Shown in pieces: positions 1,640-54,879 of a stretch of 64,000 nucleotides of DNA (within the stretch, counting starts at the first letter, position 1; each line of letters begins with the position of its first letter). The notes beneath the pieces are model-generated. The model searched no databases and had not been told where the DNA came from. It worked only from the letters and a program-made list of their open reading frames with translations. The stretch is from IMG/VR virus record IMGVR_UViG_3300019487_000021, one strand, 5' to 3'. The position numbers and the translations under genes were made by a program. This stretch comes from a virus (Duplodnaviria; Heunggongvirae; Uroviricota; Caudoviricetes).

Positions 1640-1710
1640 GCCCCTGCCATCGGATGGAGCCGGGACTTCTAATCTCAGCATTGCAGGTTCGAATCCTGCC
1701 AGGGGTACCA
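1640..1710 (+). ncRNA. tRNA-like RNA with canonical acceptor stem, T-arm and encoded CCA but no foldable anticodon arm
   Basis: Acceptor GCCCCTG/CAGGGGT, T-arm GCAGG-TTCGAAT-CCTGC, discriminator A plus CCA. The 36-nt middle segment forms only the mini-hairpin CCAT-CGG-ATGG and carries a loop-like UUCUAAU. Confidence 0.5.
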
Positions 1711-1728
1711 AATCGTTGTGGCACAAAG

Positions 1729-1760
1729 CAGACCCTAGTAAGGTCTGTTTTCCTTTTTGG
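1729..1760 (+). terminator. rho-independent terminator after the tRNA-like RNA
   Basis: CAGACC-ctagtaa-GGTCTG followed by a T-rich run. Confidence 0.55.
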
Positions 1761-2873: not shown

Positions 2874-3073
2874 ATGAAATTCATTGTTGAAATCCACGCA
2901 GCAGAAGGTGGTGACGATAGCAAGTTGTTCGTCAAAGATCTCGCACAAGCATATCTCAAACTTTCAACTCGCAAGGGTTGAACAGCTCGCATTGTGCTAG
3001 ATGTGGCCGATGAGATCCGTGTTGAAGTGACGGGTCAAGACCTAGCACAATTGATGAATGAACCTGGCGGTCC
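2874..3073 (+). pseudogene. 5' fragment of a class-I release-factor paralogue (copy 1), with in-frame TGA at 2988-2990
   Basis: MKFIVEIHAAEGGDDSKLFVKDLAQAY aligns to the intact copy at 3618. Same GAGGAG RBS. Reading through the TGA continues as RF-like EVTGQDL...EPGG, then decays and is overlapped antisense by the HNH gene. Confidence 0.5.
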
Positions 3074-3547
3074 TTACTCACTGATCAGTTTCGATAGAGA
3101 TTCAACGAGCGTTCGCAGTTCTTGTAATGATGCATCGTGTTTGATCGCATTACAACGGTGGCAGCAAAGAACTACGTTGAAGGATGTATATCCTTCAGAA
3201 GGAATTAATCGATCGATGCTGGGTGAGCCGCGATGGTCTTTTCGTGTCCCATGCAAATTAAACGGATTGTGGCAATATACACAGCTGCTTTGTTGTTCAT
3301 GGAATTTTGATCGAATTTCTTCTCGTGTCAGTGTAAATGGGATGCTTCTTTTTGAAGAGCGTCGTGAAGCATCACCTACAGCAATAGTGAGCCATCGTTC
3401 CAGCGGTTCTTTGCCTTTGTAGCGACGCTGACTGTTTGAACTCTGACACCTTTTGCAGATGAAGTACAGTCCGTTGGCGTCGCGTCCTTTTGGGAAATCA
3501 GATGCGATTTTGGTGAGATTGCATTGTCTGCAAACTTTTGTAATCAT
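3074..3547 (-). CDS. HNH homing endonuclease
   Basis: CVYCHNPF...HGTRKDHRGSPSIDRLIPSEGYTSFNVVLCCHRCNAIKHD HNH motif; sits between two release-factor 5' copies. Confidence 0.8.
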   Translation of the reverse strand: MITKVCRQCNLTKIASDFPKGRDANGLYFICKRCQSSNSQRRYKGKEPLERWLTIAVGDASRRSSKRSIPFTLTREEIRSKFHEQQSSCVYCHNPFNLHGTRKDHRGSPSIDRLIPSEGYTSFNVVLCCHRCNAIKHDASLQELRTLVESLSKLISE

Positions 3548-3617
3548 GGTGAGTCTCCTCCTTGAGTGTTATTTATGGGGGACACCATTGAAGTTACTCC
3601 CACCGAGGAGAATGAAC

Positions 3618-4313
3618 ATGAAGAAAGTACACTTTGAAATTCACGCTGCCGCTGGCGGCGATGACGCGAAATTGTTTGTGGGCGAACTAGCAAAAGCATA
3701 CGAGCATATGTTCGTGCGTATGGCTTGGAAGTATCGCTGACTGCACACAGCACAATCGGCCGTGGGATACGCGTCGATTGTGTTTGAAGTGACGGGGAAT
3801 GTAGATATGTTGTTTAACGAATGCGGACTTGTCTCCTTGCAACGAGTTCCACCTACAGAGCGAAAAGGAAGAGTACACACATCGACCGTTACGGTTGCTG
3901 TGATTGATCTCGACAAGTATGTCAAACCAGACTACTCGTCAATCAGCACAAACGACCTGAAAGTTGAATGGTACTCCGGTAGTGGTGCCGGTGGGCAGCA
4001 TCGCAACAAGCATCAGAACAGTTGTCGCTTGACGCACCTTCCAAGTGGATGGACTGAGACGGCTCAGTGTCGCAGCCGAGATGCGTCATACAAGCAGGCA
4101 CTTGGACAGATGCAACGTGTGCTACAAAACAAAGGCAACTACCAAGTTGAACGTGCTCAATCCGTTGACCGGAAAGCACAAATGGGTTCTGGAATGCGTG
4201 GTGATAAGATTCGCACGTATCGTTTTCAAGACGATGTTGCAACTGACCACCGCACAGGAAGGAAAGTGAACTTGACAAAGGTAATGAACGGGAACTTCAA
4301 CCTGTTCTGGTAA
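3618..4313 (+). CDS. class-I peptide chain release factor lacking domain 1 (RF1/PrfH-like; PPT codon-recognition motif, GGQ); contains an in-frame TGA at 3738-3740
   Basis: AAGGDDAKLF...RVPPTERKGRVHTSTVTVAV...SGSGAGGQHRNKHQNSCRLTHLPSG aligns to RF1 domains 2-4. ORFs 3453-3740 and 3762-4313 are in the same frame, separated only by TGA, which sits at a normally coding position. RBS GAGGAG. Confidence 0.75.
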
Positions 4314-4317
4314 ACGT

Positions 4318-4923
4318 ATGTTGCAATACCCAAGTATACCAAGCTGGCGATACGTCGAACACGGACGACCATGCACAGCGTTTTACAAGTATGACGGATC
4401 GAATCTTCGATTCGAGTGGTCGTGGAAGCGTGGTTGGTACAAGTTCGGCACACGGACACAAATGATGGATGAAAACACACCGATTTATGGTGCGGCAATT
4501 CCTTTGTTCAAACAAACGATGGCTGAGTGGATCGCTCAGCGCTGTCAACATACTTTTGGTAAGAAGCTGGAACGCATCGTTGCGTTTGCAGAGTGGTTTG
4601 GACCATCAAGCTTTGCCGGTTGGCATGATGAGAATGAGAAGAAGCAACTCGTTCTCCTTGATGTGTCAATCTTCAAGAAAGGTGTTCTACCACCAGATCA
4701 GTTCTTGAAGTTCTTCGAGCGGGCAGATTTTTGCCCGAAAGTGATCTACAAGGGTGTGATGGATCAGCGGTTCATCGACAACGTTCGTGAGGGTCGGTAT
4801 CCAGTGTACGAAGGAGTTGTGTGCAAAGGAGTCGATTGGAACGCAAAAATCAAAACGGTCGAGTATCTCGACCGTTTGAAGAAGGAAAACACTGAAGCGT
4901 GGGAATTGATGAAGGACGAGTAA
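4318..4923 (+). CDS. small ATP-dependent RNA/DNA ligase (nucleotidyltransferase domain)
   Basis: Motif I FYKYDGSN (KxDG) and motif IV/V-like EGVVCKG. Confidence 0.55.
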   Translation: MLQYPSIPSWRYVEHGRPCTAFYKYDGSNLRFEWSWKRGWYKFGTRTQMMDENTPIYGAAIPLFKQTMAEWIAQRCQHTFGKKLERIVAFAEWFGPSSFAGWHDENEKKQLVLLDVSIFKKGVLPPDQFLKFFERADFCPKVIYKGVMDQRFIDNVREGRYPVYEGVVCKGVDWNAKIKTVEYLDRLKKENTEAWELMKDE

Positions 4924-6182: not shown

Positions 6183-6329
6183 CACTATATGATCAATGGT
6201 AGTCGGCGCTGGAGCGCGGCGGTGTCTTATAAACACTGGAGATCGGCTAGATTGGCTGGAACGGGAGGGATCGTAACCCTCGGCTACTACCAACGAATAT
6301 AGTGATAGAACCATATAATAAGGATATAA

Positions 6330-9637: not shown

Positions 9638-11370
9638 ATGTCAAAGCTCAACGCTCAGGGCAAGCGCCCAGTAAAGTCTACGTCTAACCATCGTTACGTA
9701 GCACCAGGAGTCCGTCACGTTCCTGTCGAAACTACTCTTGCTATTCCGGTAACGGAAACCGTCAGTGGAACAAAGAACCACTGCAGCACCTGTACGAACT
9801 TGCCGTGTCAACACTACTTGGTAAGGACACGTTCTACCGCACTAGCGACACACTTGTAAAGAATATGAAGACCAAGCTGAATGAAGCCGTTTCCATGGGT
9901 GCGTTTGACTTCGTTGCAAACGTTGCAATCCACGCTCGTGTGCAGATGGGCATCCGCTCACTGCCGATCATGTTGGTTGTCGAATTTGCAAAGATCCTCG
10001 CTGACTATCGTGCTCCGTACACGCAACAGCTGAACGACCTCCGTACACAACTCGCAAAGGCTCGCAGCGTAGCCAAAAAGCTTGAACTTGGTGACGAGAT
10101 TGCTCGTGTTCAGGCAATTGCGGAATCGTTCAACTACGAGAACATGCGCCGTTTGGTGTGTGATGTAATTCAGCGCGCCGACCAGATCACTGACCTCTAC
10201 GCTTATGCCCTTGAAGTGTTCGGTGGTAAGGGCAAGGTGCCGATGGCTGTGAAGCGTGGTGTAGCTGATGCTTTCAACAAGTTCAACGAATATCACTTCG
10301 GCAAGTACGACCGTGCTGGCTCGGTGAAATTCCGTGATGTACTGCGCATTGTTCATCCAACAGCTAAAAACGAGAAGCAAGGCGTGTTGTTTGAAAAGAT
10401 CATGAAGGAAACTCTAGCTACTCCGTACACTTGGGAAACCGAGCTTTCGAAGAATGGCCAGCTTCCGAAGGAAGAACGCCGTTCCGAGGCTCAAGTGTGG
10501 ACAGACTTGCTGGAGTCAGGCAAGCTTGGTTACATGGCTCTTCGTTCGAACGTTCGTAATATCATCAAGGCTGGTGTTGATGATGAAGTGATCGGTGTAT
10601 ACGTTGCAAGTGTGTTGGCTGATCCGAAGCGAGTTGTAGAAAGCAAGCAGTTCCCATTCAGCTTCATCCAGGCCCGCAATGCGATCCAGGAGGTTGGTGG
10701 TAACACGAAGATCCGTAACGCACTGGACAAGGCACTTGAGCTTTCATGCCGCAACATCCCAATGTTGGGCAAGAAGCTTGCTCTGATCATCGACAAGTCG
10801 GGATCGATGGTACAAGGCGTTTCAACGATGCCAGGCTTCACTCCGTTCGACCAGGCTGTAACACTAGCTGCAATGGTCGTAAAGGCACATGCAGATGCTG
10901 ATGACCTTGCCGTAATCGTGTTTGGTTCGGCCGCCGAAACACTAACAGACATCAACCCGAATGACAGCATCAACTCAATCGCGAACCGTATTCGCCAGTC
11001 AAAGGCTGGCGGTGGTACTCAATTCGATGTTGCGTTGCACGCGTTGAACCAGCTGGGATTCAAACCAGATGCCGTGCTTGTTATGACGGACGGTGAAATC
11101 AACAAGCTGTGGATCCAAGGCACGCGCCAGCTGGCTAGCATTCCATCGAGCACGTTGAAAGTTGTTGTCAACTTCCAGGCAGCAAACACAACTCCATTCC
11201 CAATCCGTGAAGGTTGGTATCCGATTGCAGGTTGGTCGGACAAGGTGTTCAAGTGGATTCCTGCGATCCACCAGAAAGTGACAGTTGTGGATGCGCTGTG
11301 TGCTCCATATGCGGGTGCAGAAGCAATGAAGGCTGCAATTCGCGCTGAAGCTGAAGAAACAGAAGAGTAA
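9638..11370 (+). CDS. rsr: Ro60/Rsr orthologue (TROVE plus vWA domains) with an apparent -1 frameshift near 9770-9800
   Basis: KFRDVLRIVHPTAKN matches the Ro60 motif SHKDLLRLSHLKPSS. vWA MIDAS LALIIDKSGSM...GGGTQ. RBS AAGGAG at ATG 9638 (frame 2); the body is in frame 1 from 9688 and has no ATG of its own. Confidence 0.7.
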
Positions 11371-34644: not shown

Positions 34645-36153
34645 ATGTTTGGAATGAATTCCATAGTGGGTAAGAAATACTTCAAAGACGCACCGAAGGA
34701 TAGTCTGTTAGTCACATCTCGTTTTTTCACAATTCAAGGCGAGGGAATTTACCGCGGAATGCCGAGCTACTTCGTACGTTTAGCGAAATGCAATCTCGCA
34801 TGTTCATTCTGTTTTGTTGGCAACACAGAAATAGCAATGTCAAATAAACCACGCAAGAAAATCAAAGATGTCGTCGTTGGAGATGTTGTTGTCGCATATG
34901 ACGAAACAACTGGAACATTCGAGCCAGGAACCGTGTCACGTTTGTACCAATCTCAAACAGACGAACTCGTGTATATTCGCACAGCAACGGATCGAATCTA
35001 CTGCACGCCTGAACATCCGTTTTACGTTCGTGGTAAGGGTTGGATTAAAGCAATTGATTTACAACCGAGCGATGTTCTTCTACAAGCAGAATTTATTCAT
35101 AACGGTGAAATGGTCCATACCGTTGAGCGAATAGTGAAAGGCTCGGCTGCTTGGGTGCAACTTGCAGGATCAAAAGATGCTGCCTGTACAGTTTATAATT
35201 TTGAAGTTGATAAGTACCACAGCTATGTAGCGAACGGAAAGGTTGTACACAACTGCGACACGTACTTCGACTCTGGTGAGTATCAAACATACGACCAGAT
35301 CTTTGCCGACTGTGACAAAGAGATCGAAGCCTTCTATGCAAGGCGTAACATGAAAGTTCCAGCGTGGGCAAAGCATTGTGACGGATATTGGGAACCTACA
35401 GGAATAGATAATGCAATTGGCACTCCTCCAGAGGAATGGGTCGCTGAATCGAAACGTAAGGTTGTCCTAGTAATCACAGGCGGTGAACCAACACTTCAAA
35501 CGAACCTCACCGAATTCCTCGAACGAGCAAATAAGATTTTCTTTCACACACAAATCGAGAGTAACGGAACAGATCCTTTAACGTTACCAGATGCAACCAC
35601 GCTTGTGTGTTCACCAAAGTGTCTCGAGAAGAAGCAAGGCATGCAGAAAATCCCCGTGACGGCCTACTTCAGCGGCAACGATGAGCGTGGAGAAGGGATG
35701 TCAGGCCGGCCCTCATACGTTACGTACCACGAAGAGCCACGATACGTTGCCGTTCGATATCTTGAACCAAAGAAAGAGATGCTTGAACGTGCTGACTGTT
35801 TGAAGTTTGTTATGTGTGCTCCTGACGATGACCAAAGCCAGTTCACGCCATACAGTGAAGTTCCTCAGTGGGCACATGACTGGGCTGCAAACACTGGCAA
35901 GCCTGTGTTCGTATCGCCGATGAACATCTACCTGCAAGAGCCACAAAAGGCTAAGAACCTTCGTGCGCAAAAGCAGAGTGGTGAAATCACAATCGAAGAA
36001 CGGTCGACGGTCGACGAAGTCATTTCGTGGTGGGAAAACGATCTCCTTGATATGAAAAAGAATCACCGCAATCATGAATACGCAGCTGAATACTGCATGA
36101 GGCATGGATTTATCTTTCAAGTTCAACTACATTTGTTTGCGAGTCTTGCCTAA
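34645..36153 (+). CDS. queE: 7-carboxy-7-deazaguanine synthase QueE (radical SAM) interrupted by a mini-intein
   Basis: FTIQGEG, CNLACSF[intein]CDTYF, VLVITGGEPTL. Splicing would restore CNLACSFC (CxxxCxxC). Confidence 0.8.
   Translation: MFGMNSIVGKKYFKDAPKDSLLVTSRFFTIQGEGIYRGMPSYFVRLAKCNLACSFCFVGNTEIAMSNKPRKKIKDVVVGDVVVAYDETTGTFEPGTVSRLYQSQTDELVYIRTATDRIYCTPEHPFYVRGKGWIKAIDLQPSDVLLQAEFIHNGEMVHTVERIVKGSAAWVQLAGSKDAACTVYNFEVDKYHSYVANGKVVHNCDTYFDSGEYQTYDQIFADCDKEIEAFYARRNMKVPAWAKHCDGYWEPTGIDNAIGTPPEEWVAESKRKVVLVITGGEPTLQTNLTEFLERANKIFFHTQIESNGTDPLTLPDATTLVCSPKCLEKKQGMQKIPVTAYFSGNDERGEGMSGRPSYVTYHEEPRYVAVRYLEPKKEMLERADCLKFVMCAPDDDQSQFTPYSEVPQWAHDWAANTGKPVFVSPMNIYLQEPQKAKNLRAQKQSGEITIEERSTVDEVISWWENDLLDMKKNHRNHEYAAEYCMRHGFIFQVQLHLFASLA
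34810..35253 (+). mobile_element. mini-intein (148 aa, no endonuclease domain) in QueE
   Basis: Begins with Cys, block B TPEHPF, ends VVHN followed by a +1 Cys. Confidence 0.75.
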
Positions 36154-54804: not shown

Positions 54805-54879
54805 GCTTCGTAAACTTTGACGGTGAAGCCCACTCCTGTAAAGTGGCGGAAGTAGGTTCGAATCCTACACGGAGCTCCA
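54805..54879 (+). tRNA. tRNA-Thr (anticodon UGU; C33)
   Basis: GCTTCGT/ACGGAGC, CCACT-CCTGTAA-AGTGG, GTAGG-TTCGAAT-CCTAC, T plus CCA. Confidence 0.6.

Follow-up and report, generated by a model that had tools for sequence, protein, structure and literature searches.

We analysed a 64,000-nucleotide stretch of Caudoviricetes DNA (IMG/VR virus record IMGVR_UViG_3300019487_000021; hereafter, the window), a dense and mostly one-stranded phage-like region with 46% G+C. Near its beginning we found a tRNA-like element at positions 1640-1710 that probably represents the gene of a tRNA-Arg with the anticodon UCU and a compact core. Its sequence is GCCCCUG CCAUCGGAUGG AG CCGGGA CUUCUAA UCUCAG CAUU GCAGG UUCGAAU CCUGC CAGGGGU A CCA, and its parts are listed here together with the hairpin that lies downstream.

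1640-1710, plus strand: putative compact tRNA-Arg(UCU) gene (read from sequence, folding and a family model)
1640-1646, plus strand: acceptor stem 5' strand, GCCCCTG (seven of seven positions pair with 1700-1706)
1647-1657, plus strand: compact D hairpin, CCAT-CGG-ATGG (minimum free energy fold and family covariation)
1658-1659, plus strand: 2-nt AG linker from the D hairpin to the anticodon stem (AG in most family members in alignments A2 and A3, a conservation partly imposed by the search pattern)
1660-1665, plus strand: anticodon stem 5' strand, CCGGGA, six positions including the 26:44 equivalent (pairs with 1673-1678)
1666-1672, plus strand: anticodon loop CTTCTAA, with anticodon TCT at 1668-1670, U33 and A37 (Rfam tRNA alignment, family model alignment and the syntenic orthologues L019 and L022)
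1673-1678, plus strand: anticodon stem 3' strand, TCTCAG (pairs with 1660-1665)
1679-1682, plus strand: variable loop CATT (family alignments A2 and A3)
1683-1699, plus strand: T-arm GCAGG-TTCGAAT-CCTGC (five of five pairs, canonical T-loop)
1700-1706, plus strand: acceptor stem 3' strand, CAGGGGT (pairs with 1640-1646)
1707-1710, plus strand: discriminator A73 (1707) and encoded CCA (1708-1710), read from the sequence
1725-1758, plus strand: terminator-like hairpin (1725-1751) followed by a T-run (consensus scan)

A sequence-only reading of this DNA had described the element as a tRNA-like RNA gene without an anticodon arm, either a Y RNA candidate of the YrlA type or an aberrant suppressor tRNA. 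The canonical T-arm, discriminator A and encoded CCA of that description can all be read at 1683-1710. The acceptor stem, which had been called perfect, does pair at every position, although one of its pairs is a G1.U72 wobble beside six Watson-Crick pairs. The distance between the acceptor 5' strand and the T-stem is exactly 36 nt (1647-1682), as had been noted, but the conclusion that this middle part cannot form a D-arm plus an anticodon arm does not hold, since both arms appear in the minimum free energy (MFE) fold and in the Rfam tRNA alignment. The anticodon arm is present, and the part that is reduced is the D-arm.

The MFE structure calculated with ViennaRNA for the 73-mer is a cloverleaf consisting of the acceptor stem, a CCAU/AUGG hairpin, the UCU anticodon hairpin and the T-arm. 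In the D hairpin (3-4 bp), positions 1647-1650 pair with 1654-1657; it abuts the acceptor stem with zero linker nucleotides and holds GGA, the equivalents of G18, G19 and A20. From the 26:44 end towards the loop, the anticodon stem is composed of C-G, a C.A mismatch, G-C, G-U, G-C and A-U. The element has the 7-bp acceptor, discriminator, CCA and 5-bp T-stem with TTCRANY loop expected of a tRNA, as well as an anticodon arm whose 7-nt loop has U33 and a purine at position 37. It departs from the canonical form in the D-arm, which has no connector nucleotides, C at positions 8 and 9 and a hairpin that starts at position 8; despite this reduction, G18G19(A20) is retained.

In a sensitive scan of 1500-1900, the Rfam tRNA model (RF00005) aligned with the element and placed the anticodon loop as CUUCUAA with the anticodon UCU, but its score of 25.2 bits (E 0.0043 for that small region) is below the gathering threshold of 29 bits; no family besides tRNA matched the element with E < 0.2. 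The heptamer TTCTAAT, previously taken for an anticodon loop reading UAG, is indeed found at 1667-1673. In this CUA register, only two of the five flanking positions pair. Shifting one base to the left gives the UCU register, with four of five stem pairs plus a sixth, and this register is also favoured by the relatives.

Homologues of the exoribonuclease-like protein encoded upstream of the element led to two related jumbo-phage contigs, L019/L020/L021 (355 kb, 54% identity) and L022 (48%). In L019 and L022, the homologous exoribonuclease-like gene is followed, directly downstream, by an element built in the same way. The L019 element reads GCCUCCG CCAGUGGAUUCUGG AG CAGAAG CUUCUAA CUUCAG CUUUU GUGGG UUCGAUU CCUAC CGGAGGU G CCA, and the L022 element reads ACCCUCG CCGAUGGACGG AG ACAGGA UUUCUAC UCCAGU UUAU GCAGG UUCGAAU CCUGC CGAGGGU G CCA. 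Both retain the UCU anticodon, the GGA of the small loop, the AG linker and CCA, and there are compensatory changes across the orthologues in the acceptor, D-hairpin and anticodon stems (anticodon stem, GGGA/UCUC in the window to GAAG/CUUC; D hairpin, CCAU/AUGG to CCAG/CUGG or CCG/CGG). The near-identical locus L068 differs from the window only in two double-compensatory acceptor pairs and in ACAA in place of the encoded ACCA. A normal tRNA at this site in relatives had been named beforehand as the sign of a decayed copy; L019 and L022 carry the same compact form, and this synteny argues that the element is not a decayed copy.

When the 1.6-kb neighbourhood was compared with 50,697 cultured phage genomes by blastn, no match appeared; we also found none in IMG/VR with exact 32-nt and 38-nt DNA patterns of the element, and no IMG/VR relatives of the upstream gene in our search. 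Looking up the exact protein retrieved the same phage only, its DNA being 100% identical. The 14 IMG/VR loci reached through the downstream S-adenosylmethionine (AdoMet) decarboxylase gene (50-60% identity) are not syntenic and have no upstream tRNA.

A degenerate pattern derived from the three orthologues (fixed letters CC, GGA, GGAG, YTTCTAM and GGTTCGA) matched 5 IMG/VR contigs, 41 metagenome contigs and 1 reference-genome contig. The last, the only match among 185,579 genomes (596 Gb), is a 31-kb contig of a metagenome-assembled genome with a primase-helicase neighbour. When IMG/VR was scanned without specifying the anticodon, all matches with a paired acceptor had Arg anticodons (UCU, ACG and CCU), and the rest were chance matches that are not tRNAs. 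A grammar scan of the fetched loci (T-loop anchor, 7/7 acceptor pairs and no more than 17 nt ahead of the anticodon stem) yielded 57 distinct sequences with Arg anticodons (34 UCU, 8 CCU, 5 CCG, 5 ACG, 3 GCG and 2 UCG), each of which has the zero-linker hairpin. No Arg-anticodon candidate failed the hairpin filter; in an earlier scan, 2 of 30 had six rather than seven acceptor pairs. Most family members encode CCA, and GGA is kept in 17 of the 18 members that were selected by no GGA-containing pattern (non-UCU members of the grammar scan, minus the ACG and CCU hits of the IMG/VR scan with unspecified anticodon). Only five sequences with another anticodon showed the zero-linker hairpin in the grammar scan, namely three Asp GUC, one CAU and one CGU. 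This near-Arg-only membership points to the unusual reliance of arginyl-tRNA synthetase (ArgRS) on A20 in the D-loop. The tRNA-Asp(GUC) genes with the same mini D-hairpin (CACC-UGG-GGUG, then GAA/GAG) are located in L028 (3865-3936, minus strand), in L070 (6803-6874, plus strand) and also in L044, and ARAGORN calls them with the anticodon at position 29. The compact core is not strictly limited to Arg, as these examples show.

Among cultured phages, the only compact-form match by blastn was in Microcystis phage Mwe-JY26. The element and three family members, used as queries against these phages, mostly matched canonical tRNA-Arg or the T-arm only, and two of the queries gave nothing. A PHROG scan of the open reading frames (ORFs) beside a soil-type array (L053) returned zero matches; L069 has a primase-helicase neighbour. 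Full-text literature searches, made in a partial library that gives no proof of novelty, turned up no account of this class or of phage tRNAs whose D-arm is reduced.

Structure statistics were obtained from a 45-sequence MAFFT alignment whose members had passed filters for the acceptor, the T-stem and three D-hairpin pairs. Standard pairs occupy 92% of the cells, compared with 65-67% in shuffles, none of which (0 of 500) attained the observed level, and the covariation score is 0.75 versus 0.22 in shuffles, with changes on both sides in 22 of 22 pairs. Sliding the 3' partner by 1-3 columns lowered pairing to 33-47%. All seven acceptor pairs covary in the family, and the T-arm is paired in 97.8% of cells. 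In the D hairpin, the pairs 8-21, 9-20 and 10-19 covary, being CG, UA or GC at the first two and GC, AU, UA or CG at the third. None of the filters made use of the sixth anticodon-stem pair (the 26:44 equivalent), and 39 of the 45 sequences have a Watson-Crick pair there (CG 15, GC 12, AU 6 and UA 6). De novo folding with RNAalifold of the alignment without the window sequence gave the same architecture.

A covariance model (R1) was built from 38 members, leaving out the window element and L068. It matched the window element over its full length (positions 1-72) with 76.9 bits and E 3e-18 over the whole window, more than chance would give. The earlier reading was right in seeing a tRNA-like RNA gene with a non-canonical core. 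The next R1 matches in the window are ordinary tRNAs with at most 36 bits.

Judging from these sequences, the compact-core tRNA-Arg appears to be a phage-associated structural class that is found mainly on viral and metagenomic contigs. Its architecture comprises a 7-bp acceptor with N1-U72, no connector, a 3-4 bp D hairpin with G18 G19 A20, the AG linker, an anticodon stem of 6 bp in which one internal position is often mismatched, an anticodon loop of 7 nt that has U33 and A37, a variable loop of 4-5 nt, a canonical T-arm, a purine discriminator and the encoded CCA.

The identity set of bacterial tRNA-Arg consists of A20, C35, U/G36 and A/G73 (PMC9976931). The window element has the whole set (GGA in the D loop, anticodon UCU and A73). 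ORFs of the window use AGA and AGG at 5.7 and 3.5 per 1000 codons, respectively, and neither ARAGORN nor Rfam found a second tRNA-Arg in the window. We consider that 1640-1710 is probably a functional compact-core phage tRNA-Arg(UCU) gene, with a probability of roughly 0.8. The gene would be co-transcribed with its neighbours, RNase P would make the 5' end and exonucleases would shorten the 3' end as far as the encoded CCA. Charging may then be carried out by the ArgRS of the host via A20, C35, U36 and A/G73, and the charged tRNA would decode AGA, and probably AGG, in phage mRNAs. As ArgRS reads A20 in the D-loop, a mini-hairpin presenting GGA would stay chargeable, and the altered core might escape nucleases or modification enzymes. 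The core may be compact because this lets the tRNA evade modification enzymes or tRNA-targeting nucleases of the host, or it may have drifted neutrally within what ArgRS tolerates.

Family members are often encoded inside tRNA arrays. In L028, ARAGORN detected 21 tRNAs and zero tRNA-Arg, and four compact tRNA-Arg (UCU, CCU, ACG and CCG) fill the two gaps of ~160 nt in the array. With no Arg tRNA besides the compact ones, this near-complete array argues for ordinary decoding. Some members are recognised by ARAGORN as tRNA-Arg, the anticodon being placed at 29-31 (in L025, L045, L048, L051, L064, L065, L070 and L084), and the Rfam tRNA model at its gathering score recovered no compact Arg tRNA from six other loci. 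In Mwe-JY26 (PP438418.1, L084), one compact member is annotated as tRNA-Arg (CCG, 813-884), and a second (UCU, ~994-1066), between this tRNA-Arg(CCG) and a tRNA-Tyr, is unannotated. Related and unrelated phage tRNA arrays also contain genes that ARAGORN reports as 'tRNA-???' with 8-nt or 6-nt anticodon loops (cgat, aaga, ct), at 7355-7426 in L019 and at 4714-4789 and 5055-5129 in L026.

Several observations weigh against a functional tRNA-Arg. The element is not among the 11 tRNAs that ARAGORN detected in the window, nor among the 10 that Rfam detected at the gathering threshold. It lacks U8, A14 and the acceptor-D connector, so its tertiary fold is a prediction, and its anticodon stem carries a C.A mismatch. 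A canonical tRNA-Arg(UCU) is present beside the compact one in L025 and L070, and the compact form is therefore not always the sole supply. Many members were retrieved with a fixed-letter pattern, and the conservation of those letters is in part by construction; the syntenic orthologues, the co-resident non-UCU members and the pairings are free of this selection. Finally, it is from sequence that we infer the transcription, processing, arginylation and AGA/AGG decoding of the element.

The 1725-1758 hairpin is the terminator that the sequence-only reading had reported after the element. Hairpin and T-run are present, but one such site, where shuffles give 0.9 per region, is weak on its own. 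The hairpin is not conserved in L019 or L022, which leaves its link to the compact tRNA weak, and it is possibly the end of the transcription unit. On the other side, an 11-bp hairpin followed by TTTT (1605-1639) abuts the 5' end of the tRNA; it could be a processing signal or else terminate the gene that lies upstream.

The genes around the element that bear on its interpretation are as follows.

1079-1528: DEDD 3'-5' exoribonuclease/RNase H-like gene, immediately upstream of the compact tRNA
1770-2129: AdoMet decarboxylase gene, downstream of the tRNA
4318-4923: RNA-ligase-like gene
9805-11370: TROVE/Ro60 gene with a vWA domain

The exoribonuclease-like gene adjoins the compact tRNA in three phages, and its distant homologues carry PF16473. 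An identical protein is encoded on contigs of up to 352 kb, and the window belongs to a jumbo phage of roughly 350 kb; identical DNA is also present on a 100-kb contig of the Joint Genome Institute (JGI). By their predicted functions, the exoribonuclease-like, RNA-ligase-like, release factor 1 (RF1)-like and Ro60 genes form an RNA-processing/translation island. The positions previously given for two of these neighbours are correct, with the TROVE/Ro60+vWA gene 8 kb away and a release-factor locus (PCRF/RF-1 ORFs at 2874-4313) at a distance of 1 kb.

The RF1-like ORFs have an in-frame TGA near codon 36-43, in two copies in the window (2874-2981, with the TGA at 2979-2981, and 3612-4313, with the TGA at 3738-3740) and in one copy in L019 (11431-12108). 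These genes carry the tripeptide PPT at the PxT position and a GGQ motif and are without domain 1. The TGA aligns with a conserved Trp of RF1 ('...ERKGW') in the first window copy and in L019 and lies four codons past this Trp in the second copy. Similarity of the first window copy to release factors ends after ~70 codons, and a reverse-strand ORF without a family match (3074-3547) is located between the two copies. The in-frame TGA could reflect programmed UGA read-through or autoregulation, local recoding, or decay. ORF statistics of the window gave no clear signal of genome-wide recoding of TGA or TAG.

Other tRNA genes of the window also have uncommon features. ARAGORN detected a tRNA-Ile(UAU) of 95-98 nt with a long extra arm and an odd T-loop at 6198-6292 in the window and at 6025-6122 in L022; it is conserved in both phages, and the Rfam tRNA model gives 55 bits on the L022 copy. 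For a tRNA of class-II-like form, an anticodon that reads AUA would be unusual. A further tRNA at 54805-54879 was found by Rfam (35 bits) and not by ARAGORN; its loop, CCUGUAA (anticodon UGU, Thr), has C in place of the near-universal U33. Elsewhere in the window, the ORF 34645-36153 combines Hint/intein splicing domains with a radical-SAM domain and is probably an intein-interrupted radical-SAM enzyme.

The compact tRNA-Arg may have a primary role beyond ordinary decoding, as a variant that resists a tRNA-targeting nuclease or serves as its decoy (the nuclease belonging to host defence or to the phage's own degradation of host tRNAs), or as a substrate in the non-ribosomal transfer of arginine; in such roles, its compact D-arm would be adaptive. 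The architecture is almost confined to viral and metagenomic contigs (46 matches versus 1 in reference genomes) and nearly restricted to Arg isoacceptors among the sequences found, a canonical tRNA-Arg(UCU) accompanies the compact one on some contigs, and the neighbourhood is rich in RNA-repair and translation genes (RNA-ligase-like, Ro60, exoribonuclease-like and RF1-like). Phage tRNAs are able to evade anticodon nucleases, as published work has shown (PMC12409363). We nevertheless regard such a role as unlikely: the analysis identified no nuclease or partner, nothing in the anticodon loop or the identity elements looks non-canonical for decoding, and in L028 the Arg tRNAs of the array are all compact. 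Less probable still is a decayed, non-functional tRNA-Arg(UCU) that has lost ~5 nt of its D-arm, even though the element is ~5 nt shorter than a canonical tRNA, missed by ARAGORN, below the Rfam threshold and mismatched in the anticodon stem. Diverged relatives, with 48-54% identity in the flanking protein, have the same form at the syntenic site, compensatory substitutions are seen in all helices, the mini D-hairpin among them, and 57 distinct sequences share the architecture, with CCA, U33, A37 and GGA retained.

The two identities proposed by the sequence-only reading have to be given up almost entirely. An amber suppressor with a CUA anticodon, tied to the nearby release-factor genes, was suggested by the UUCUAAU heptamer at 1667-1673 and by RF1-like genes with in-frame stops 1-2 kb away. 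Those stops are TGA and not TAG, TAG serves as a stop in ORFs of the window, where no signal of genome-wide recoding was seen, and the CUA register pairs poorly (2/5 against 4/5 plus the sixth pair). The relatives keep the UCU register by compensatory change, and sister members carry other Arg anticodons only. We give this possibility next to no weight, and the same applies to a YrlA-like bacterial Y RNA that would partner the phage Ro60/Rsr protein. YrlA RNAs contain a tRNA-like module, and the likeness of the element to them lies in a tRNA-like fold with a T-arm and in the Ro60 orthologue encoded in the same genome, 8 kb downstream. The ends of the element, however, form a 7-bp acceptor with ACCA and not a Ro-binding helix, and it has an anticodon arm with a conserved Arg anticodon. 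Its position 8.1 kb upstream of the TROVE gene is not the adjacency to rsr seen for Y RNAs; in relatives, it is syntenic with the exoribonuclease-like gene instead, and family members are located in tRNA arrays. A sensitive Rfam scan around the Ro60 gene gave chance-level matches only and nothing resembling a Y RNA.

The compact tRNA-Arg(UCU) can be compared with several known tRNAs. Canonical tRNA-Arg(UCU), as in E. coli argU and Shigella phage Sf11 (L085), has the same CUUCUAA loop, A20, a purine discriminator and CCA, and shares a GGAU.GAGC-like segment of the D-region and the presumed decoding of AGA/AGG. The T-arm of the Sf11 tRNA-Arg(TCT), GCAGG-UUCGAAU-CCUGC, is identical to that of the element, and the nearest cultured-phage sequences by blastn are canonical tRNA-Arg(UCU). 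Canonical forms differ from the element in having U8-N9 connectors, a D-stem of 4 bp (GCUC/GAGC), a D-loop of 7-9 nt and a single nucleotide 26, and their acceptor and anticodon stem are separated by 19 nt, whereas 13 nt precede the 6-bp stem here. Mammalian mitochondrial tRNA-Ser(UCN) and tRNA-Pyl also keep a cloverleaf with a short acceptor-D connector, a small D-loop and a 6-bp anticodon stem. They have one connector nucleotide and a 3-nt variable loop, and tRNA-Pyl is without G18G19 or the T-loop consensus. The compact family differs from both in its zero connector, AG linker, conserved GGA, TTCGA T-loop, Arg anticodons and occurrence on phage contigs; we found no evidence of common descent. 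Metagenome mining has uncovered allo-tRNAs with 8/4 or 9/3 acceptor branches, some of them in phage tRNA clusters (Mukai et al., PMC5389517). Allo-tRNAs are likewise deviant and restricted to particular amino-acid identities (PMC5389517), but their acceptor/T-stem partition is altered and their D-stems and V-arms are long, whereas the element has a canonical 7/5 branch and a reduced D-arm and core.

The class is missed by the Rfam tRNA model and often by ARAGORN, so that phage arrays such as that of L028 seem short of tRNA-Arg, and compact tRNAs missed in this way bias analyses of codon supply in phages. A cloverleaf without connector, U8 and A14 and with a Watson-Crick 26:44 pair apparently suits bacterial RNase P, ArgRS, EF-Tu and the ribosome. 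With such a fit, the bacterial translation apparatus would tolerate more than has been known, a tolerance so far illustrated mainly by mitochondrial tRNAs and tRNA-Pyl. The restriction to Arg combined with the reliance on A20 is a testable structure-function question, for which the cultured Microcystis phage Mwe-JY26, with its two members, offers an experimental handle. A more tentative proposal, which we find doubtful, is that phages maintain a class of compact Arg tRNAs that spread over all Arg isoacceptors because their altered core allows them to escape a host or phage nuclease or modification enzyme targeting tRNA-Arg and still to be charged by the host ArgRS. If this nuclease-escape reading were true, standard annotation would overlook part of the phage tRNA-Arg repertoire, and the class would be the sign of an arms race centred on tRNA.

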